This document shows, piece by piece, positions 411 through 62,964 of a DNA stretch of 64,000 nt (within the stretch, counting starts at the first letter, position 1; each line of letters opens with the position of its first letter). The notes under the pieces were generated by a model. The model did no database searches. It saw nothing but the letters and a program-made list of their open reading frames with translations, and was not told the origin of the DNA. Source of the stretch: Shigella phage SSG23; the sequence record PQ351811. One strand, given 5' to 3'. The translations under genes and the position numbers were made by a program.

Positions 411-439
411 TTGACACCAGAACACACCTATAGCATAAT
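411..439 (+). promoter_or_regulatory. PeSL-like early sigma70 promoter (TTGACA, 17-nt spacer, CATAAT) with conserved leader
   Basis: ttgaca 411-416, cataat 434-439, then cacacatcgaaacga..aggagaatcaaa leader shared with other copies. Confidence 0.65.
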
Positions 440-479
440 ACACACATCGAAACGAGATACTACTTAGGAGAATCAAACA

Positions 480-749
480 ATGGCACTGACTAAAACCACT
501 ACCAACTTTGCAAAACGCCACGGCTTCGACCTTGAAATCAACAGCTTTAATGATTACACTCTTCTGTGTGTATATGAAATCGAAAATGATTGCGAGTGGA
601 TGTTCAGCTATCGCGTAAACGAAGACGGGTCTTTCACTTGGAACGGAAATATCTATCTTGCGCAGGAAGTAAAAGAAGAACTTCCAGCGACTATCAAAGA
701 TGAGAAGCATTTACGTCAAGTTTTAAAATTTATTTCTGAAAATATCTAA
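480..749 (+). CDS. hypothetical early protein (89 aa)
   Basis: ORF behind PeSL-like promoter and SD aggaga. Confidence 0.65.
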   Translation: MALTKTTTNFAKRHGFDLEINSFNDYTLLCVYEIENDCEWMFSYRVNEDGSFTWNGNIYLAQEVKEELPATIKDEKHLRQVLKFISENI

Positions 750-756
750 AAAGTTG

Positions 757-785
757 TTGACACCAAAGTAAGAACATAGCATAAT
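757..785 (+). promoter_or_regulatory. PeSL-like early sigma70 promoter
   Basis: ttgaca 757-762, cataat 780-785, leader tacacccataccgaaacga. Confidence 0.65.
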
Positions 786-818
786 ACACCCATACCGAAA
801 CGAACTGGAGAGTCAAAA

Positions 819-1100
819 ATGAAATTCATCAAAGCAACCGAGATCCTGAACAACAAAGAAGCGTACATTGGCAACATCGTTGGTATGAACATTCGCGGCG
901 CTGGTAGCCAGTGGACCAAACTGGTTGATGTTAAAGCTAAAGGCGATAAAATCGAGTTCACTGTAAAAATGCTTACTCATAACGCACATATGGGTATCAA
1001 GACAAAAACGATGGCAGCAGATAAAAGCATCAACTATCAAGATCTGGGCGATTGGCTGAACTGGTGCAAAATGTACAATATCGAAACTAATCACGAATAA
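819..1100 (+). CDS. hypothetical early protein (93 aa)
   Basis: ORF behind PeSL-like promoter; SD ggagag. Confidence 0.65.
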   Translation: MKFIKATEILNNKEAYIGNIVGMNIRGAGSQWTKLVDVKAKGDKIEFTVKMLTHNAHMGIKTKTMAADKSINYQDLGDWLNWCKMYNIETNHE

Positions 1101-1113
1101 TTTTAAAAAGTTG

Positions 1114-1142
1114 TTGACGGGGATCGGGAGATCCCCTATAAT
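1114..1142 (+). promoter_or_regulatory. PeSL-like early promoter with spacer hairpin
   Basis: ttgacg 1114-1119, palindrome ggggatcgggagatcccc in spacer, tataat 1137-1142. Confidence 0.65.
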
Positions 1143-1175
1143 GCACACATACCGAAACGAAATAGGAGAATCAAA

Positions 1176-1343
1176 ATGTTCGAGACTAAAGCAGCATGTG
1201 AAGCATATATCATTGAAACCCACGGCGAAGATTATCTGAAATTTGACATTGTAGTAGCACAGAAGATTGTAGGGATGGTTGCGAAATACCTCGGAGTTAA
1301 AGAAGGTTACTATCCTAGCAACGCACCAGAAATTAACAAATAA
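1176..1343 (+). CDS. hypothetical small early protein (55 aa), not in ORF track
   Basis: ATG 1176 after leader aggagaatcaaa; stop taa 1341-1343; sits between two promoter cassettes. Confidence 0.55.
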   Translation: MFETKAACEAYIIETHGEDYLKFDIVVAQKIVGMVAKYLGVKEGYYPSNAPEINK

Positions 1344-1357
1344 TTTTATAAAAAGTG

Positions 1358-1386
1358 TTGACAGGGGAGGATAACTCCCCTACAAT
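1358..1386 (+). promoter_or_regulatory. PeSL-like early promoter with spacer hairpin
   Basis: ttgaca 1358-1363, palindrome ggggaggataactcccc, tacaat 1381-1386. Confidence 0.65.
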
Positions 1387-1426
1387 ACAACCATCAAGAC
1401 GAGATACCACTTAGGAGAATCAAACA

Positions 1427-1678
1427 ATGGCTAACATCGAAACCGCAAAGAAAATCGCTAAAGACCTGAACGTTAAAGGCTTCCGTAAACTGAAATTACA
1501 GCGTGTACGCTACACCGTCGGCAAACAGTGCTCTTTCATGAGCGAAGAAGTTGCTAACAGCCTCATTGATAACCTTATTGCGGCTGGCTGGGAAGTTGCG
1601 GATCTGAAAACTTGCCGCGAACTGGCTAACAAAGGTCTTTTAGATTCTGTTACTATCAAACCAATGGGGGCAGCGTGA
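1427..1678 (+). CDS. hypothetical early protein (83 aa)
   Basis: ORF behind PeSL-like promoter; SD aggaga. Confidence 0.65.
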   Translation: MANIETAKKIAKDLNVKGFRKLKLQRVRYTVGKQCSFMSEEVANSLIDNLIAAGWEVADLKTCRELANKGLLDSVTIKPMGAA

Positions 1679-1920
1679 AAAGAAAATTAATTAAACGAAA
1701 TAAGGAATTGTTGAATAACTGCATTAAGGACGCTAATGGTTGGCCTTTGTTCCTCTTCCTTTATGATCGACATTCTAAACAATCGGCTGAGGAAGCACGA
1801 CACTATAAGAAGATCAGAAAAGAATCATATACAAAACAAGGACGCATTAACGGAATTTACTTAATGTGGCACGGCAAAGAACCTTCTAAAATCTGTGTTG
1901 GGTTAAAGGGGCGTATATGA
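1675..1920 (+). CDS. hypothetical protein (81 aa), GTG start overlapping upstream stop
   Basis: only a GTG start is available (GTGA overlap), ggggg upstream; basic protein; translationally coupled position. Confidence 0.35.
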   Translation: MKRKLIKRNKELLNNCIKDANGWPLFLFLYDRHSKQSAEEARHYKKIRKESYTKQGRINGIYLMWHGKEPSKICVGLKGRI

Positions 1921-2633
1921 AACAAAAATTAATATTCTGCAACTTTGACGGATCGGGGATAATGGGGCTAGAATGGGCTAAAGCAGGTCATAAGGTGATC
2001 TGCTTTAATGCGGATGACGCCGACCACGGTACATACAAAAAGTATAATACCAGATTTGAACATCCAAACATTACCTATGTAAACACCTGGATTGATTTGA
2101 ACTGGCTGGAAAGAGCAATGGACCTTGAATGGGGGAAACCGGATATTATATTTGCATTCCCACCTTGCACCAATTTAGCTGTTAGTGGCGCTGCACACTT
2201 TGAACGAAAGAAAAGAGAGCAAGGACCATTAATTCAAGTTCATGATGTAAGGGCAGCTAAAATAACAGCTTATTTGGGCGAATGGTTAGGAGTTCCCTAC
2301 ATGATAGAGAATCCTGTAAGCGTTATCTCTAGCATGTGGCGTAAGCCTGATTACATGTTCCACCCGTGGGAATATGGCGGTTATTTGCCGGAAAATGATA
2401 TACATCCTACGTTTCCTGAGTATATTGCCGCCCGTGATATGTACCCGAAAAAGACTTGCTTATGGACCGGACAAGGCTTTATAATGCCAGAAAAGAAACC
2501 GTTGCCGATTAATAAAGGGTACAGTAAACAGCATTCTAAGCTAGGCGGGAAAGGAACCAGAACAAAGACTATCAGGTCACTTACCCCGCGAGGATTCGCA
2601 AAGGCAGTATTTGAAGCCAATAAGGATCTATGA
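1917..2633 (+). CDS. C5-cytosine methyltransferase-like protein (238 aa)
   Basis: motifs in C5-MTase order: FCNFDGSG (motif I-like), FPPCTNLAVSG (PC motif with catalytic Cys), MIENP (ENV-like); short region after the ENV motif. Confidence 0.5.
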   Translation: MKQKLIFCNFDGSGIMGLEWAKAGHKVICFNADDADHGTYKKYNTRFEHPNITYVNTWIDLNWLERAMDLEWGKPDIIFAFPPCTNLAVSGAAHFERKKREQGPLIQVHDVRAAKITAYLGEWLGVPYMIENPVSVISSMWRKPDYMFHPWEYGGYLPENDIHPTFPEYIAARDMYPKKTCLWTGQGFIMPEKKPLPINKGYSKQHSKLGGKGTRTKTIRSLTPRGFAKAVFEANKDL

Positions 2634-2962
2634 TGAGATTGTTTAAGTATTCGCTAACGTCAAATTATGACAAACAAGGTCATTGTATCCGTTGCCCTGA
2701 TTGCCATAGTCATAACATCGAAAGCAAGATCCGTGATCATATTGATGGACTTTGGTCGCCAGCAAGCGAGATAGAATACTATTGCGCTGATTGCGGAATT
2801 GTAGTAGCATATTGGGCATACGGATCATATGATCCCTACTTCCAGATGGGAGAGCGTTCAATCCCTGCGCTTATCTGGAGAATTAAGAACAATATCCGCC
2901 ATTCATGGGATGAGTTCTTAAAAGATATTGATTTACGTGATGATCCATTCAGGAGACTATAA
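2630..2962 (+). CDS. zinc-ribbon protein (110 aa), possibly HNH-like
   Basis: CxxCxxC..H..H then CxxC in translation; ATGA overlap with upstream gene. Confidence 0.55.
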   Translation: MMRLFKYSLTSNYDKQGHCIRCPDCHSHNIESKIRDHIDGLWSPASEIEYYCADCGIVVAYWAYGSYDPYFQMGERSIPALIWRIKNNIRHSWDEFLKDIDLRDDPFRRL

Positions 2963-2963
2963 C

Positions 2964-3482
2964 ATGAACCGTTTGACGCCTAAACGCCGTTACTATACCA
3001 ATACTAAAAACTTTGTCATCTCTGTTTATGAGGCATGGTTAGAAGATGGCTATATCAACATGAACCCAGATTATCAGCGTCCTTTGGTATGGGACACCGA
3101 AAACAAACGTATGTTTATCGAGAACATGATTAATGACTTTCCGGTCGGCGCTATCGCAATGGCTAAGATTGATGATGGCTCTCGCTATGAAATCGAAATC
3201 GTGGACGGCAAACAGCGTTTAAACGCAATATTCTCATTCATGAAGGATGAGTTTAGCATTGCGGGTAATGATGATTCTATGCTGTATTACAGCGATTTTA
3301 CGCCAGCAGAAAAGCGACGTTTCCGCAATCTAGGACTACCAGCGATCATGATGGAAGAGAGCACACGAGAAGATCGATTAGAATATTTCTACAAAACAAA
3401 CTTTTTCGGTGTGCCTCAATCAGAAGATCATCGCCAGCATGTGATTGCCCTATTGCAAGATGAGCAATTAAAAAATAACTAA
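2964..3482 (+). CDS. DUF262 (ParB-like / GmrS N-terminal type) domain protein
   Basis: PDYQRPLVW and IVDGKQRL motifs; start moved to ATG 2964 with SD aggaga 7 nt upstream. Confidence 0.6.
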   Translation: MNRLTPKRRYYTNTKNFVISVYEAWLEDGYINMNPDYQRPLVWDTENKRMFIENMINDFPVGAIAMAKIDDGSRYEIEIVDGKQRLNAIFSFMKDEFSIAGNDDSMLYYSDFTPAEKRRFRNLGLPAIMMEESTREDRLEYFYKTNFFGVPQSEDHRQHVIALLQDEQLKNN

Positions 3483-3489
3483 AAAGTTG

Positions 3490-3519
3490 TTGACAGGGGA
3501 TCATCGATCCCCCTATAAT
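3490..3519 (+). promoter_or_regulatory. PeSL-like early promoter with spacer hairpin
   Basis: ttgaca 3490-3495, palindrome ggggatcatcgatcccc, tataat 3514-3519. Confidence 0.65.
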
Positions 3520-3551
3520 GCACACATACCGAAACGAAAGGAGAATCAAAC

Positions 3552-3731
3552 ATGAAACACTTAACCATCGAATCAGCAATCATCGCAATCGCTAAAGTTC
3601 AAGCGGCTTATAATTGCACTGACCTTGAAGCAATTTCAAAAATGCAAGCGGCAGCAGCAAAAGCGGGTGATGAAAAATCTTTAGATGTTCTCTGCGAAAT
3701 CAAATCAGAATTAATTTCAAAAATGTTCTAA
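3552..3731 (+). CDS. hypothetical small early protein (59 aa), not in ORF track
   Basis: ATG 3552 after leader aggagaatcaaac; stop taa 3729-3731. Confidence 0.55.
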   Translation: MKHLTIESAIIAIAKVQAAYNCTDLEAISKMQAAAAKAGDEKSLDVLCEIKSELISKMF

Positions 3732-3737
3732 AAGTTG

Positions 3738-3766
3738 TTGACACGCGATAGGGTGTATAGCATAAT
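3738..3766 (+). promoter_or_regulatory. PeSL-like early promoter
   Basis: ttgaca 3738-3743, cataat 3761-3766, leader tacacccataccgaaaca. Confidence 0.65.
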
Positions 3767-18119: not shown

Positions 18120-20660
18120 ATGTCTGATAAAATCAATATTTTACATCAAACTATGGGTCCGGTCTACGCGTCTGTAGGACATGAACTTGTTCTTAAGCTC
18201 GTAGTAAGTACCGCAGATTTTAAAGACTATATCGTAGAATGGAAGCTAAACGGTCAAAGCGTACCATCAGATCAGGTTGCAGAACCAGATCAATCTCTGT
18301 ATATTGCTGAAATGGCAGAAAATCAATTCGGCACATATACAGCGAAAGTTAAGCTGAAAGATAATCCGCTTGAATCGGTTGATATTAAGCCTATTCTTGT
18401 TGAACGTCGCACCTTCCTTGCGCCACATGATCAATCTCCGACCTACATTTACAAGCGGTTAGGCGAAGAATTGGATATTTTTGTTACTCCGTTTATCGAA
18501 GATGATAAAGAGTTTGATACTATTTGGTATAAAAACCATATTCAGTTAGATCAAAGCAAAATCCAACAAAAAAACGTGCATGTAGATCGAGTTGGTTATG
18601 AGGATTTTGGTAACTATACTTGTAAGGTATTTGTTACCGATGATGCACGTTCTCACTATTGGATCAGTCCTGTAGTAGTGGAACAAAATAAAGATGCTCC
18701 TAAAGTTCATATTCAGGAACATTACCCATCAGCGGTTACAGTGGCAGAGGACACGCGATTGGATCTTGAAGTGTCTGTTACGACCGACGACAAAACGCGA
18801 CCATTGTCTTACGTGTGGATTCATAATGACAGGATGGTACTGGATCAAGACGGGACCGCACTGATTATACCGCATGTTACAAAAAAAGATGAGGGTGTCT
18901 GGCGTCTTGAAGTTCGTCAAGCAGAAACTACGGTCTATTCAAAAGATTGTCATGTTACAATACAAGGACGAGCGTTTTTCCGCTTCACTAAACAACCACA
19001 ATCGTTAAATGTGGGTGCTGGTGCTTTAGGTTTGTTCAGTGTTGATTTTGCAACCAACTACGAACCGGTAAAAGTTCAATGGTACATCAAGAAAAATGGT
19101 GAAGATGAATTTAAACCAATTGTTGGCGCAACTAATAAAGATCTTCACATTACACCCGCTACGCAAGAATTAAATCAGGCGAAATATAAGGCTAAGGTGA
19201 CTTATGGTGATAATCAGGTCGCCGATTCAGCAGAAGCGGACCTTCTTGTAGGCGCAGCACCTACTATTAGAATCACTAAGCAACCACAACAGTTAAACAA
19301 TGTTCGAGTTAGTTCTTCACAAACTCTTATTTGTGAAGCAACAACTGATTATGAGCATTATAAACTTGATTATCAGTGGTATAAAAATAATGAGTTGATT
19401 CCTGGAAAAACATCTAAAACTTTGCATTTTTCCTCAATCACTAAAGCAGATGAGGGTCAATATAAATGTAGAGTTTCTATGGGTATTCAGAATCATCGAA
19501 TTACGGCGGATTCTAACGAAGTTCAGGTTACGGTAGACAACTCAAAGGCTAATCTTGAAATCACGGTACAGCCTAAAGCGGTAAAAGTTCGTTCGGGTGG
19601 ACAATGGTCGCTGACTATCACAGCAACGTCTAATGATGCTTTGCCAGTTCGTTACCGTTGGTTTAAAGATGGTGAGGATCTTTTCCCGGCAGGAATTGAA
19701 CAACGAAACGTATATGGCGAAGACCATGCACAATTAACATCTACTGGCGTTTATACATGCCGTGTATCGGCTGGATTCGGTGAACATCGAGTTTCTAAAA
19801 TGTCGGATGCTGTTCGTGTGCTGATCTCAGACGATGTAACGGTTGTTCCAAATGACCTAGAAATAACAACTCACCCACAAGATGCGCATGTAAAATATAA
19901 TGAAAAACTTATGCTACATGCTGCCGCACAAACATCTATTGGTATTAAACCATCATATCAATGGAAAAAAGACGGTGAGATTATCCCAGGTGCAAATTCA
20001 GATGTATTGATCATTGATCACGCAAAACCGTCTGACGTAGGCAGCTACACAGCGGTAATTACGGCGGGTGAGAATACCATTGAATCTAATCCTGCATTAG
20101 TGACCATGACTCATCATTCAAATATCAATATTCTGAAACATCCGGTGGATGTGGTTGCTAAAGAAGGTCAGAAACAGGATATTACCTTAGAAGCTCATGC
20201 CGAACACGTTGATGATGAAAAAGAAGTTCAATGGAAATGGCATAAAATTCAGGGCGGTAAGGATACTGTTATTCCTGGCGCGAATAGTAAGGTGTATACT
20301 ATTCCTAAAGAACAAATTAGCAAGAATGCACATCAAGCAACCTATTATGCAGAAATTACTGACGACGAAGGACATGTTAAACATAGTGAAAAAGTTCGTG
20401 TGGTGTTTACTACCGCGAAATTAAAACGCTATGTACACCCGATTCCGTGGCGTCGTACTTCGTTCCAGTATCAAGGCTATTGGGTACTTGATGAAATTGA
20501 CCGTTGCAACCGCGAAGGGCTTAACTGGCTTGAGGATTTTACCCACACCAAATATCCAGACGAGATCGAGACTATTGCAGCCTCGTTGCATCACTATTCT
20601 AATACTCATGTATTGGAATCTCGTAATGGTTATCTGGTTGATGGTACTCAACTATTTTAA
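18120..20660 (+). CDS. hoc: Hoc-like outer capsid protein with about 8 Ig-like domains
   Basis: repeating roughly 95-aa Ig-like units; C-terminal YVHPIPWRRTSF..ESRNGY module resembles the remembered T4 Hoc capsid-binding end. Confidence 0.8.
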   Translation: MSDKINILHQTMGPVYASVGHELVLKLVVSTADFKDYIVEWKLNGQSVPSDQVAEPDQSLYIAEMAENQFGTYTAKVKLKDNPLESVDIKPILVERRTFLAPHDQSPTYIYKRLGEELDIFVTPFIEDDKEFDTIWYKNHIQLDQSKIQQKNVHVDRVGYEDFGNYTCKVFVTDDARSHYWISPVVVEQNKDAPKVHIQEHYPSAVTVAEDTRLDLEVSVTTDDKTRPLSYVWIHNDRMVLDQDGTALIIPHVTKKDEGVWRLEVRQAETTVYSKDCHVTIQGRAFFRFTKQPQSLNVGAGALGLFSVDFATNYEPVKVQWYIKKNGEDEFKPIVGATNKDLHITPATQELNQAKYKAKVTYGDNQVADSAEADLLVGAAPTIRITKQPQQLNNVRVSSSQTLICEATTDYEHYKLDYQWYKNNELIPGKTSKTLHFSSITKADEGQYKCRVSMGIQNHRITADSNEVQVTVDNSKANLEITVQPKAVKVRSGGQWSLTITATSNDALPVRYRWFKDGEDLFPAGIEQRNVYGEDHAQLTSTGVYTCRVSAGFGEHRVSKMSDAVRVLISDDVTVVPNDLEITTHPQDAHVKYNEKLMLHAAAQTSIGIKPSYQWKKDGEIIPGANSDVLIIDHAKPSDVGSYTAVITAGENTIESNPALVTMTHHSNINILKHPVDVVAKEGQKQDITLEAHAEHVDDEKEVQWKWHKIQGGKDTVIPGANSKVYTIPKEQISKNAHQATYYAEITDDEGHVKHSEKVRVVFTTAKLKRYVHPIPWRRTSFQYQGYWVLDEIDRCNREGLNWLEDFTHTKYPDEIETIAASLHHYSNTHVLESRNGYLVDGTQLF

Positions 20661-20694: not shown

Positions 20695-20709
20695 ATGGAG
20701 TGGCTTTAT

Positions 20710-21936
20710 ATGGCTTTCACAGTATCAATTAAATCAAACAAAAGATGTTTTCTTGCTGGAGATGGTTTCACATTAACAGCGACTGTAGCAGGTGACGAAC
20801 CATTACCCAGCAATTTGACCTATACATGGACAAAAGACAACAAACCGCATGAAAATAACACCGCTACGCTAACCGTAGAAGGTGCAACAAGTGAAAATGC
20901 GGGTAACTATAAAGTCACTGTACAAGATACCGACAGCGGGGAATCTGTAGAATCTGACGTTTTCCGCATGGAAGAAGCTGAATTAATCGTTAAGATCACC
21001 GAACCGCCGCAATTCTATGTTCCTACTCACACAGACGTAGAATTACACGCAACCGTCAAATTTTCTGGCGGGAAGACTCCAACAGACAACTATGAACTAC
21101 ATTATAGTTGGAGTAAGGGCGAAGAAGTTATAGACACAACACAGGATATCACGATCCAAGAATTTACAGCAGATAACAACGGTGTGTATACTGTAAAAGT
21201 ATGGGGAGAATCGGAAGATTCAGCCGATAGCGCATCGACTAAAATCATGCTAGCAACAATGAGCGTAGAACAGGATGTGGTGGCATCAAAGACCGTAGCA
21301 CTAGGTAAGGAGATCTTACTTAATTATGTTGTGTCAGAGGACATTGTAGGCGATTCTAGCGGTATGCCTAAATTGACTATCAAACATAACTGGTATTTGC
21401 AACGTGAAGGACAGCCGTCACCGACTCTGATCGGTAGTGAGGTCGGCGAAGCACTGGAAGGATTTTCTATCATGCCAGATGGTCATCTGTTCAAAGAGCG
21501 TGCTACTTACGACGATACAGCCAAATTCTGGTGTGTTGCTAAACTATATCAACAGATCGAAGACGCAACAGTAGAACTTGCAGCACGTACAAGCAGAAAA
21601 TGTTCAATGGAAGTTGTTGAATCTCTTCATAAAATGTTCCGTTATGTGCACCCGATCCCGTGGCGCAAAACTTCATTCATCTATATTGGATGGTGGGTAT
21701 TTGACGAGATTGTTAAATTCAATGAGGCTGGGTTAGAGTGGCGTCACCGAGAAGTTTATTCAACCAGCAAGTACGCCAAAGATCTGGAGACAATCGCGGC
21801 AGCGGAAGAAAAATATAGTGATTGCACTTGCATGGAATCTCGCAATGGTTTCATGTATCAGTCCAAAGAGTTCCATAAACTGGACCGAGAGACGTTAGAG
21901 CGAGTTCTACGCATTCGTGAAACGCCTCCTGCTTAA
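20710..21936 (+). CDS. hoc: Hoc-like outer capsid protein, T4-sized with 3 Ig-like domains
   Basis: MAFTVSIKS N-terminus resembles remembered T4 Hoc MTFTVDITP; C-terminal YVHPIPWRKTSF..ESRNGF; start moved from 20695 to ATG 20710. Confidence 0.85.
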   Translation: MAFTVSIKSNKRCFLAGDGFTLTATVAGDEPLPSNLTYTWTKDNKPHENNTATLTVEGATSENAGNYKVTVQDTDSGESVESDVFRMEEAELIVKITEPPQFYVPTHTDVELHATVKFSGGKTPTDNYELHYSWSKGEEVIDTTQDITIQEFTADNNGVYTVKVWGESEDSADSASTKIMLATMSVEQDVVASKTVALGKEILLNYVVSEDIVGDSSGMPKLTIKHNWYLQREGQPSPTLIGSEVGEALEGFSIMPDGHLFKERATYDDTAKFWCVAKLYQQIEDATVELAARTSRKCSMEVVESLHKMFRYVHPIPWRKTSFIYIGWWVFDEIVKFNEAGLEWRHREVYSTSKYAKDLETIAAAEEKYSDCTCMESRNGFMYQSKEFHKLDRETLERVLRIRETPPA

Positions 21937-21947
21937 TGAAATCTATC

Positions 21948-21973
21948 AGCCATCCTTCGGGGTGGCTTTTTTG
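21948..21973 (+). terminator. rho-independent terminator
   Basis: agccatcc-ttcg-gggtggct hairpin followed by tttttt. Confidence 0.65.
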
Positions 21974-21983
21974 TTTTTAGTGC

Positions 21984-22011
21984 TTGACAGCGTGATTTAG
22001 TGGCCTATAAT
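21984..22011 (+). promoter_or_regulatory. sigma70-type promoter
   Basis: ttgaca 21984-21989, 16-nt spacer, tataat 22006-22011. Confidence 0.6.
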
Positions 22012-22051
22012 GGCAAACATCAACAGGGCGTTACCCAATGAGGAAAATATT

Positions 22052-22123
22052 ATGAATATGGGGTTGAAAATGGCTTTAATAACTGTTACTGTCCTATTCG
22101 TTGTTGTGTTTATGAATGTATGA
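22052..22123 (+). CDS. possible 23-aa hydrophobic peptide
   Basis: ATG after SD gaggaaaa; translation MNMGLKMALITVTVLFVVVFMNV; stop 10 nt before next gene. Confidence 0.25.
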   Translation: MNMGLKMALITVTVLFVVVFMNV

Positions 22124-22131
22124 GGTGAAGT

Positions 22132-22329
22132 ATGAATGATATTGTACGACTGATCGAAGTTACACCGCTTTCGGTTTATATCCTAGTGCTGGTTGCAACA
22201 ATGTGCTACCAGCTAGCGGCGTGTAGTGTATGGAAGTCAGAAAACGCGTTTATCCGGTTTATTGGCACTATCATGATTCAGTTTCCGGTTATGATCACTA
22301 TCCTGTTAATCGTCAATGGGGCGAAGTGA
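22132..22329 (+). CDS. small membrane protein (65 aa)
   Basis: SD gaggtgaag; two hydrophobic segments. Confidence 0.5.
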   Translation: MNDIVRLIEVTPLSVYILVLVATMCYQLAACSVWKSENAFIRFIGTIMIQFPVMITILLIVNGAK

Positions 22330-22604
22330 TGGACAAGAAAACTGCGTTAATGGTTTACATGCTACGCGAAGACCACGGTCTTAATTTTGTTGATATTGCT
22401 AAGAAGATTGGCGGGATCAGCGGACAAGATGCGGCTAAGGCATGGTTGATGGTAAAAGACGCACGCGAGGCTTACGCCAACCGTGAAAAGGTTGTTTATC
22501 GTAAACACCACATCAACAAAAAATTTAAAAATAAAGTTCAAAAACGGGTTGACAAGCCAAATAACACTGTTATAATGGACGCATTCAAACGGGCAATGTC
22601 CTGA
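22329..22604 (+). CDS. small basic protein, possible HTH DNA-binding (91 aa)
   Basis: ATG 22329 overlaps upstream stop (TGATG); LNFVDIAKKIGGISGQDAAKAW helix-turn-helix-like segment; basic C-terminus. Confidence 0.45.
   Translation: MDKKTALMVYMLREDHGLNFVDIAKKIGGISGQDAAKAWLMVKDAREAYANREKVVYRKHHINKKFKNKVQKRVDKPNNTVIMDAFKRAMS
22549..22576 (+). promoter_or_regulatory. sigma70-type promoter inside the 3' end of the preceding gene
   Basis: ttgaca 22549-22554, 16-nt spacer, tataat 22571-22576. Confidence 0.55.
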
Positions 22605-22650
22605 TTTGTAATTAATATTCTGAATAACTAATCAATAGAGGTGACTAATT

Positions 22651-23088
22651 ATGAAATTCCGTAAAAACCACGTAGCAATGAAAAAAGCAATGTTCGAAGC
22701 GTTCAAAGCAGTTGATCATGGCGGTGTTACTCTGATTGAGCAAATTAATGTTGATGTTTGGCAATCTCCGGCGATCACTTGCTCACGTCTGGCGACGGCT
22801 GGTCTTCTGAACGTTCATAGCTCTACCGCATACGACGAAGCATTGCAAGTTATTAAGGCTTTCGCTGGCGACGTTACCAGTAAGTGGGTCTATGAGAATA
22901 AAGGTGAAATTGCGGTTGCTCATGTAGGCAACAATATCCAGATGGAAATCAAGATTAAGGAAGGGTCTAAACGCAATCAGATGCTTGTTCGCTTCCAGCC
23001 ATACAAAACTAACGTAGTGCCGGATGATCTGATCATCTCTAAGAGCAATGTTACCATTCGCCGAAATCAGATCGTTATCAACAAATAA
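22651..23088 (+). CDS. hypothetical protein (145 aa)
   Basis: SD agaggtga; terminator downstream. Confidence 0.6.
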   Translation: MKFRKNHVAMKKAMFEAFKAVDHGGVTLIEQINVDVWQSPAITCSRLATAGLLNVHSSTAYDEALQVIKAFAGDVTSKWVYENKGEIAVAHVGNNIQMEIKIKEGSKRNQMLVRFQPYKTNVVPDDLIISKSNVTIRRNQIVINK

Positions 23089-23096
23089 TTAACATT

Positions 23097-23121
23097 AGCC
23101 GTCCTTCGGGGCGGCTTTTTT
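23097..23121 (+). terminator. rho-independent terminator
   Basis: agccgtcc-ttcg-gggcggct hairpin followed by tttttt. Confidence 0.7.
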
Positions 23122-23175
23122 GTATCTATTATTGACATAATTTTAGTTTACATTTGGACAATATTAATACTGTTT

Positions 23176-23248
23176 GATTAAATTATGATCAAAACGAAGA
23201 AAGATCTTTAGAACATAGAAAATGTATCTTTGATTAATTATTAATCAC
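23176..23248 (+). repeat. copy A of a conserved AT-rich intergenic motif
   Basis: gattaaattatgatcaaaacgaagaaagatctttagaa... shared with copies at 23325 and 60751. Confidence 0.6.
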
Positions 23249-23324
23249 CACATAATGTAACACAAATGTTATACTCCGTAGGAGTTCGCGAAGCGATATC
23301 CTTTTGTGTAGTTTTTACATATAT

Positions 23325-23395
23325 GATTAAATTATGATCAAAACGAAGACTTATCTTATAGAATAATAAAAATTTGTTTCGAACATTTATTAATC
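23325..23395 (+). repeat. copy B of the same intergenic motif
   Basis: gattaaattatgatcaaaacgaaga identical to copy A over 25 nt, then agaataataaaaatttgtttcg shared with copy C. Confidence 0.6.
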
Positions 23396-23501
23396 AATTA
23401 CCGGAAGTGTTTTATTGCTCGCTGTGCTCGCTTCCGCTACGCGGATACTTGTATTTGTTATTAACTTGTAGTATGATATTGCTTTCTATGGAGGAAATAT
23501 T

Positions 23502-24089
23502 ATGTTTGACCAGTTACAAGATCTATTTGGAGTAAAACCACTTCGTAGATGTGCTTTAATAGGCTCTAGAAAAGCGCCTAGCGACATTTTGATAATGGCT
23601 AGTACCATTGGGAGGGTATTGTCAGAAAATCGCGTTGTAGCGCATTCTGGAGGGGCTTACGGTATGGACAATGCTTTCATGAAGTATTACGATCCAGATT
23701 ATAGAAAAATTTTCATTCCAAATTGGAAGTTTTACGACCATAAGCATAACGGTCATGATGTGATCGCATGGCAAACCTTAGAACAAAAAAATCTGGCGAT
23801 GGATGAATTAGAACACGTTTATGATAATCCTCGTTCTATACCGTTATACATGCAAAATCTGTTTTCTAGAAATGTTGCTCAAGTCTTAGGTGAGACACTT
23901 GATGATCCTGTAGATTGTGTGTTATTTTGGGCGAAAGAAGTTAATGGGATTGTTTCGGGCGGAACTCGAATTGCTGTTTACGTTGCTCGTAGACATGGGA
24001 TACCATGTTTTAACTTATATCATCAAGAAAATAGATCCGCCGTCGAAAAAATCTTGGGCGGATCTGACTTGTCTTGGTTAGATATTTAG
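23502..24089 (+). CDS. DprA/Smf-like (SLOG-fold) protein (195 aa)
   Basis: LIGSRKAP..VVAHSGGAYGMDNAFM and FSRNVAQVLG..IVSGGTRIA match DprA Rossmann-core motifs from memory; SD ggagg. Confidence 0.6.
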   Translation: MFDQLQDLFGVKPLRRCALIGSRKAPSDILIMASTIGRVLSENRVVAHSGGAYGMDNAFMKYYDPDYRKIFIPNWKFYDHKHNGHDVIAWQTLEQKNLAMDELEHVYDNPRSIPLYMQNLFSRNVAQVLGETLDDPVDCVLFWAKEVNGIVSGGTRIAVYVARRHGIPCFNLYHQENRSAVEKILGGSDLSWLDI

Positions 24090-49746: not shown

Positions 49747-49774
49747 ATTATACCTTACCAAATAAGATTGTCAA
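49747..49774 (-). promoter_or_regulatory. PeSL-like early sigma70 promoter on the - strand inside the late baseplate cluster
   Basis: - strand reads ttgaca, 16-nt spacer, tataat, then acacacatataaacaacggaggataaattATG. Confidence 0.6.
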
Positions 49775-62935: not shown

Positions 62936-62964
62936 TTGACAACCATAAACGACTATAGCATAAT
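62936..62964 (+). promoter_or_regulatory. PeSL-like early promoter
   Basis: ttgaca 62936-62941, cataat 62959-62964, leader gcacacatcgaaacga..aggagaatcaaa. Confidence 0.65.

Follow-up and report, generated by a model that had tools for sequence, protein, structure and literature searches.

Which genes lie directly downstream of hoc in Shigella phage SSG23, and do they form one module? We addressed this question for a small gene unit on the plus strand, at positions 21948-23088 of a 64,000-nt stretch of the phage genome (sequence record PQ351811; this whole stretch is called the window below). The unit holds four open reading frames (ORFs) of 23, 65, 91 and 145 amino acids (aa), and the initial annotation had read it as small membrane proteins paired with a DNA-binding helix-turn-helix (HTH) protein, at a position where nothing matched a T4 gene. 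Our analysis indicates a different architecture. T4 gp24.3 (Pfam family DUF2774) has its homologue in the 91-aa protein, which together with the 145-aa protein makes up the ancient core of the unit, the local version of a gene pair that follows hoc across T4-like phages. Between the first promoter and this core, the 23-aa and 65-aa ORFs have been added in a lineage-specific manner. Taken as a whole, and with its timing read from promoter sequence, the unit is rather probably an early accessory operon of an RB49-like T4-type phage, built from the standard regulatory cassettes of this group.

The window matches Shigella phage SFHK24 at 100% identity and a further 57 Krischvirus (RB49-like) genomes at 94-95%, and the locus is carried by 58 Krischvirus genomes. 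Here hoc is followed by the unit and then by a DprA-like gene, all convergent with gene 24. The layout of RB49 matches that of the window, and RB49p166 is annotated there as gp24.3. We compared the unit with RB49, TB34 and ECD7 and with the metagenomic relatives L005, L006 and L009-L015; a scan of viral contigs yielded three loci only. Three of the relatives (L005, L006 and L013) share about 57-70% protein identity with the unit, and all three retain the HTH gene, the internal promoter P2 (at 11/12 consensus positions), the 145-aa gene and both terminators. Purifying selection was seen for all four ORFs.

Promoters and terminators of the unit

The terminator, the two promoters and the four ORFs described by the initial annotation were all found in place. 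Directly after hoc lies an intrinsic terminator (21948-21974, hairpin 21948-21967) with an 8-bp stem, a UUCG loop and a T-run, a fold energy of -13.5 kcal/mol and a z-score of -4.46. This hairpin stops 16 nt upstream of the -35 hexamer of the putative early promoter P1 (21984-22011, TTGACA-16-TATAAT), which matches the sigma-70 consensus at 12/12 positions. The second predicted early promoter, P2 (22549-22576, TTGACA-16-TGnTATAAT, also 12/12), has a TG extension and an A-rich tract upstream and is internal, lying within the 3' end of the 91-aa gene. The unit is closed by another intrinsic terminator (23097-23123, hairpin 23097-23116; 8-bp stem with six GC pairs, UUCG loop and T-run), with a fold energy of -16.2 kcal/mol and a z-score of -4.8. 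Together the two terminators, both on the same strand as the genes, form a 27-nt direct repeat, and the copies show two differences only, which fall on both sides of one base pair (A-U versus G-C) and leave the stem intact. By our own arithmetic about 0.02 promoters matching at 12/12 would be expected by chance in the 64-kb window, on both strands; six are present.

The positions of both promoters and both terminators are conserved in the related genomes, with the exception of P1 in L005. P1 is 12/12 in RB49, TB34, ECD7, L006 and L009-L015, and every relative, even the divergent L005, L006 and L013, keeps P2 at 11-12/12. The closing terminator stands at the same position in L005, L006 and the close relatives. 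Searching Rfam at a permissive E-value over 21800-23600 returned only chance-level small-RNA matches, and these lay on the terminators.

The initial annotation was right that the module has consensus promoters of its own, but the design is not peculiar to it, as it is that of a published cassette (PMC2839356). In RB49 and phi1, each genome has about 50 of these PeSLs (promoter-early stem-loop cassettes), in which a near-perfect sigma-70 promoter is linked to a stem-loop (Arbiol et al. 2010, PMC2839356); the description was later extended to other T4-like phages (Comeau et al. 2014, PMC4122927). Their stem-loops terminate transcription as effectively as rrnB T1, and they precede ORFs of unknown function; hoc is one of the few known genes named in connection with PeSLs (PMC2839356). 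Judged by its sequence, P1 with its hairpin is a typical PeSL, of which the terminator forms the stem-loop half and P1 the promoter half. As in RB49 and phi1, a TTGACA-N16-TATAAT promoter lies beside a GC-rich stem-loop terminator, ahead of ORFs of unknown function at the plastic hoc locus, and repeated stem-loops bracket a small set of genes. P2 differs from these cassettes in being located inside a coding sequence and in lacking a stem-loop of its own, and would therefore be a plain early promoter rather than a full PeSL. The unit differs further in its cargo, of which the core (24.3 and its partner) is ancestral and syntenic and not a shuffled ORFan.

This last difference bears on one alternative, in which the four genes are unrelated ORFans without any functional link, brought together by recombination between PeSL repeats. 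In RB49 and phi1, ORFan cassettes are cut out and inserted as mini-circles by recombination of this kind (PMC2839356; PMC4122927), and 27-nt near-identical direct repeats flank the unit; the evidence from the genes themselves is given with each of them below.

PeSL-type early promoters of similar layout are present elsewhere in the window, at 411-3766, 49747-49774 (minus strand) and 62936-62964. They have in common an upstream tract, AAAAAGT(T/G)G, and a leader, ATAAT-(G/A)CAC(A/C)CAT(A/C)(C)GAAACGA...AGGAG(A/T)ATCAAA, that precedes short ORFs.

The 91-aa protein is a gp24.3 homologue

The 91-aa ORF (22329-22604, plus strand) encodes an HTH at about residues 1-50, followed by an EK(V/I)VYRK motif and a tail encoded by P2. 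The protein matched Pfam DUF2774 (PF11242) over residues 6-68 with 101 bits (cut-off 29.2, E 4.2e-29), and all 13 diverse homologues tested matched PF11242 as well. It falls in PHROG 1566, to which T4 24.3 likewise belongs (PMC11879866 supplement), and is 38% identical to T4 gp24.3. A DUF2774 gene is located downstream of hoc, on the same strand and before gene 24, in T4, CC31, Mineola, HX01, WG01, Moon, STP4-a and VPA32; in T4 the order is hoc, 24.3, 24.2 and rnlB, then 24 on the opposite strand. The locus thus does contain a homologue of a T4 gene, syntenic after hoc, contrary to the initial annotation. A tblastn search with the 91-aa protein found 902 phage records with one copy in each, and no relatives turned up when 185,579 species genomes of bacteria and archaea were scanned for the DUF2774 motif.

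The two proteins share the EK(V/I)VYRK motif, the F..IA helix, the slot directly downstream of hoc and the single copy per genome. They differ in length, T4 gp24.3 having 56 aa and no tail. The third helix is longer in the Krischvirus protein, and T4 gp24.3 is short by about 12 residues there. The following gene also differs, being the 145-aa gene here and 24.2 and rnlB in T4.

An HTH-like segment had been noticed in the 91-aa protein before, and structure prediction supports it: the model contains a three-helix HTH that superposes on sigma region 4, so that the DUF2774 fold is predicted to be a helix-turn-helix of the sigma-region-4/LuxR type. The most conserved residues of the family are F20, I23 and A24 within the HTH and the invariant EK(V/I)VYRK directly after it. 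The likeness to sigma-70 region 4 and LuxR (GerE) comes from the predicted fold and not from membership at the sequence level, as the 91-aa protein had no match to Pfam Sigma70_r4 or GerE at E up to 1. Sub-threshold matches within the DUF2774 family were to GerE (one homologue, E 0.005), to HTH_38 (four homologues, E 0.019 or weaker) and to GcrA. The protein has neither sigma region 2 nor sigma region 3 and thus cannot be a sigma factor. With either the 91-aa protein or a DUF2774 profile of 13 members as the query, sequence searches of the PDB gave motif-level matches to BurrH repeats only, which we discounted.

The initial annotation called the 91-aa protein basic, but much of its basic tail is a translation of P2 elements: the A-tract, the -35 and the -10 encode KKFKNKVQKR-VDK-...-VIM, so the promoter sequence accounts for part of the basic character. 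The structure model is of low confidence over the last 25-30 residues.

We found no literature on the function of DUF2774, gp24.3 or 24.3. In a genome-wide CRISPRi-ART screen, knock-down of T4 24.3 was scored 'Not Fit' (-0.52, p 0.86; PMC11879866 supplement file 15), and this lack of a fitness cost fits an accessory, condition-dependent role. A DUF2774 homologue of Klebsiella phage Roth77 (L021 1274-1501) is labelled 'anti-TA protein alt3' in its GenBank record. We found no supporting paper for this label and treat it as unverified; the alt.-3 gene of CC31 belongs to Pfam DUF5498, which is unrelated to DUF2774.

A second family travels with DUF2774

The 145-aa protein (22651-23088, plus strand) is a homologue of RB49p165, belongs to PHROG 15652 and has a predicted alpha+beta fold that is weakly winged-helix-like. 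By sequence its family is very narrow. A word-based search gave 11 clusters, all of Krischvirus-like sequences, and an exhaustive hidden Markov model (HMM) search of 1.84 billion representatives with its profile gave two matches, both Krischvirus-like. Structural comparison reached further. Foldseek against viral models returned uncharacterised T4-like phage proteins at E 1e-5 to 3e-3, among them proteins of Cronus (113 aa, E 1e-5), CF1 (117 aa), CC31 (193 aa, labelled '24.3') and phiP4-3 (94 aa), and in the genomes inspected the genes for these matches sit immediately after the DUF2774 gene. Carriers of this DUF2774-adjacent family are found in Jiaodavirus (Mineola, Roth77), Karamvirus (VPA32), Moonvirus (Moon), Gelderlandvirus (STP4-a), Roskildevirus (Cronus) and Bragavirus (SJ_PmiM).

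Profile searches in both directions gave the same connection. When an HMM of the 145-aa family was run against 604 ORFs from all fetched loci, its only matches besides itself were Mineola gp227, SJ_136 and SJ_137 (E 3e-4 to 1e-3; next match E 1.1), and all three directly follow DUF2774. The reverse HMM, built from nine DUF2774-adjacent proteins, recovered 12 of 12 homologues of the 145-aa protein as its only extra matches (E 5e-6 to 5e-3; next 0.15). Alignment of the two families with hhalign gave 89.7% probability and E 1.8e-6 over 78 columns. Reciprocity, predicted fold and position, taken together, suggest that the 145-aa protein is a remote member of the DUF2774-adjacent family, with which (as for Mineola gp227, Cronus gp238 and Moon gp255) it shares all three properties. 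The two groups differ in size, at 94-118 aa for the DUF2774-adjacent proteins against 145 aa in Krischvirus, with an identity of about 23-29%. They differ also in arrangement. In seven other phages the partner gene overlaps the DUF2774 gene by 1 or 4 nt (TAATG or ATGA), which suggests translational coupling, whereas the Krischvirus gene starts 46 nt after the DUF2774 gene and has its own promoter.

These results count against the recombination of unrelated ORFans introduced above. The narrowness of the 145-aa family, and of the 65-aa family described below, is what one would expect of shuffled cargo; but the gp24.3 gene is syntenic after hoc and its downstream neighbour is of one family in seven genera, so the core is ancestral and linked, not recently shuffled.

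We also considered the 145-aa protein as a homologue of T4 gp24.2 and rejected this, since hhalign gave a probability of 0.1%; the 24.2 family (T4, HX01_290, Mineola_228 and CC31p181) clusters apart from it. In CC31, gp24.3 (L016 11752-12333) is a protein of 193 aa that combines DUF2774 with the partner domain. Relative to Karamvirus VPA32, the fusion comes from one extra A in an A5/A6 run.

The small membrane ORFs are an optional addition

The first ORF after P1 is a hydrophobic micro-ORF of 23 aa (MNMGLKMALITVTVLFVVVFMNV; 22052-22123, plus strand) with a GAGGA Shine-Dalgarno sequence upstream. The initial annotation had proposed a hydrophobic peptide, and the product does have one hydrophobic span (Kyte-Doolittle mean 2.86 in a 15-residue window). 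Across nine genomes its ratio of non-synonymous to synonymous polymorphism (pN/pS) was 0.12, and its reading frame showed 11 synonymous codon variants against 3 conservative amino-acid variants, whereas the two other frames gave 5/9 and 1/13 (binomial P about 1e-5, without correction for phylogeny). On this coding-type pattern of substitution, the 23-aa ORF behaves like a genuine coding sequence.

Could this ORF instead be a translated leader, or a chance ORF, with the sole role of loading ribosomes for the 65-aa gene? In favour of this are its very small size, the overlap of its stop codon with the Shine-Dalgarno sequence of the next gene, the lack of any matching family and its omission from the RB49 annotation. 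A leader of this type would not call for the substitution pattern to be specific to its own reading frame, nor for the low pN/pS; in addition, the ORF has a Shine-Dalgarno sequence of its own, and the divergent L005 has an ORF of 18 aa, also hydrophobic, at this position. We therefore consider a mere leader very unlikely.

Database records treat the 23-aa ORF differently: it is over-extended in SFHK24, where a 37-aa version is annotated. The ATG of that version lies inside the -10 hexamer of P1, and the extension is out of frame in RB49 and ECD7. An extension that is not conserved and starts within the -10 box makes the 23-aa reading the preferred one. The SFHK24 annotation of this region (GenBank PQ351812 CDS0273 and CDS0274; window 22010-22604) has the 37-aa ORF and a 124-aa ORF, and the 65-aa ORF is missing from it. 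The 124-aa ORF is the over-extended gp24.3 homologue, and its extension is broken in five relatives.

The second ORF (22132-22329, plus strand, PHROG 16558) encodes a 65-aa protein with two hydrophobic segments (Kyte-Doolittle 2.06 and 2.39 in 19-residue windows), in agreement with its earlier description as a membrane protein; it is predicted to be a hairpin membrane protein. It matched phrog_16558, a PHROG without known function, at E 8e-42, and only eight close clusters were found in 5.8 billion proteins. Its pN/pS was 0.39. It joins the 91-aa ORF by a TGATG overlap; the two had been reported as overlapping.

This junction is one of the grounds on which the small membrane proteins and the HTH protein could be read as a single module for superinfection exclusion, lysis timing or defence/anti-defence, in which the HTH protein regulates or cooperates with membrane effectors. 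The 23-, 65- and 91-aa ORFs would also share the predicted P1 transcript, and the hydrophobic character of the small ORFs was confirmed. T4 early small membrane proteins such as Imm and Sp act in exclusion. With T4 Imm, Sp and RI the 23- and 65-aa ORFs have in common a small size, an early-type promoter and one or two hydrophobic segments; yet no sequence or profile similarity to the T4 proteins was detected, PHROG 16558 being the sole match. PADLOC gave 0 matches for all four proteins of the unit. Their PHROG matches were only to families without known function, and Pfam and NCBIfam returned no defence, exclusion, holin or toxin family.

The comparison of relatives also bears on the module. 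In L006 and L013, P1 stands directly before the HTH gene, which the 145-aa gene accompanies, and neither membrane ORF is present. L005 has an 18-aa hydrophobic ORF and a two-segment 61-aa ORF in their place, a resemblance in kind that could speak for a recurring arrangement; but no similarity was detected between the 61-aa ORF and the 65-aa protein, and the 18-aa ORF is unrelated to the 23-aa ORF. In all other T4-like genera that we examined, no membrane gene separates hoc from 24.3. Absent from L006 and L013, and with other ORFs in their place in L005, the membrane ORFs are an optional extra rather than the partner of the HTH gene. The pairing put forward by the initial annotation is thus not conserved, the conserved partner of the HTH gene being the 145-aa family, and an exclusion, lysis-timing or defence module, of which no family was matched, appears unlikely.

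The variable presence of the membrane ORFs among relatives would also suit the PeSL-driven shuffling of unrelated cargo. However, there is no PeSL on the 3' side of these ORFs, which sit between P1 and the HTH gene, so a simple PeSL-PeSL exchange fails to explain their gain and loss. With the ancestral linkage of the core, this makes shuffling rather improbable as an account of the whole unit, and we prefer to regard it as an operon with an ancient core and a lineage-specific addition. The 23-aa and 65-aa products would most likely be small inner-membrane proteins made early in infection.

Sequences adjoining the unit

Between the terminator of the unit and the DprA-like gene lies a non-coding gap of 385 nt (23117-23501). 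Within it lie two direct repeats of 73 nt (23175-23247 and 23324-23396), each of which starts with an exact 25-nt box, TGATTAAATTATGATCAAAACGAAG, found nowhere else in the window, and ends with TTAATCA, the inverse of TGATTAA. A GCGAAGC mini-hairpin comes after the first repeat and a terminator-like hairpin (23433-23445) after the second. The 25-nt box is kept twice in the divergent L005 and L006. The gap had no Rfam match, and its RNA-fold z-scores reached only -1.3 to -2. The repeated boxes could be a protein-binding site or a small-RNA locus, and a 53-aa coding sequence annotated within the gap in SFHK24 is probably spurious.

The DprA-like gene itself (PHROG 768, 23502-24089) adjoins gene 24; in CC31 and Mineola it is located beside rnlB. 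The Krischvirus locus has neither rnlB nor 24.2.

Upstream of the unit, two Hoc-type genes stand in tandem (18120-20660 and 20695-21936), encoding an 846-aa protein and then the 413-aa Hoc. The 846-aa protein is Ig-like by the precomputed Pfam matches of its relatives, and the two proteins have a common C-terminal sequence, YVHPIPWR.TSF...ESRNG. At the place of the 846-aa gene RB49 has only a 65-aa remnant ORF (RB49p168.2); a long Hoc-type gene is present in L005, L006, L012 and L014. Exact T4-type late-promoter motifs (TATAAATA) in the whole window are all on the minus strand (9/9), with none before the plus-strand hoc genes.

Discussion

From sequence and conservation we propose the following scheme for the working of the unit. 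From P1, transcription by the host sigma-70 RNA polymerase would begin at about 22018 and yield an RNA for the 23-aa peptide, the 65-aa membrane protein, the gp24.3-like HTH protein and, by continuing further, the 145-aa protein. From P2, inside the end of the HTH gene, additional RNAs would begin at about 22583 and serve only the 145-aa gene. Both transcripts would end at the hairpin 23097-23116, and the upstream hairpin 21948-21967 would insulate the unit from hoc transcription.

The two core proteins probably work jointly, as a small factor with an affinity for nucleic acid or RNA polymerase. Its usefulness would be conditional, in taking over the host or counteracting one of the host's factors, and the phage could grow without it. 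More specifically, DUF2774/gp24.3 and its partner might constitute a conserved two-subunit early factor of Straboviridae, in which the HTH mimics or competes with region 4 of host sigma-70 at the -35 element or the RNA polymerase flap, and the winged-helix-like partner makes a second nucleic-acid contact; the pair would then shut down or redirect early sigma-70 transcription, or disarm a DNA-sensing defence. In Krischvirus, which is not known to have a MotA middle-mode system, the pair would have been uncoupled and given a dedicated second promoter, and the 25-nt box (23175-23199 and 23324-23348) could be a binding site. We put this detailed scenario forward as a speculation that has only a small chance of being correct in full.

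Several observations weigh against an early operon with a conserved two-protein core. The similarity between the 145-aa protein and the DUF2774-adjacent family is remote (13-22 bits), was obtained in small search spaces and would be non-significant in a large database, and the exhaustive search with the 145-aa profile found nothing of that family. T4, HX01 and WG01 have 24.3 without the partner gene, so the HTH protein can work alone. The CC31 fusion was dropped as Rosetta-stone evidence, because a single extra A may be a homopolymer sequencing error. The early timing is read only from the promoter sequence, and P1 is not recognisable in L005.

The unit belongs to kinds already described, being a PeSL-bounded early cassette and carrying a member of the gp24.3 family; a modest novelty is the link of gp24.3 to a co-travelling family. 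In part this is of little surprise, since PeSL-flanked early ORFs are expected in the plastic regions of RB49-type phages and 24.3 was already known in T4. The analysis also provides evidence that a 23-aa hydrophobic micro-protein is truly encoded, together with corrections to the SFHK24 annotation. For DUF2774, present in one copy in about 900 sequenced T4-like genomes, it gives a predicted fold assignment, an HTH of the sigma-region-4/LuxR type. A second family travels with DUF2774 in at least seven genera, which leads to a two-protein hypothesis for a pair without literature. If this pair does act on host RNA polymerase or on host defence, it would add to T4 biology a widely conserved, dispensable early factor.

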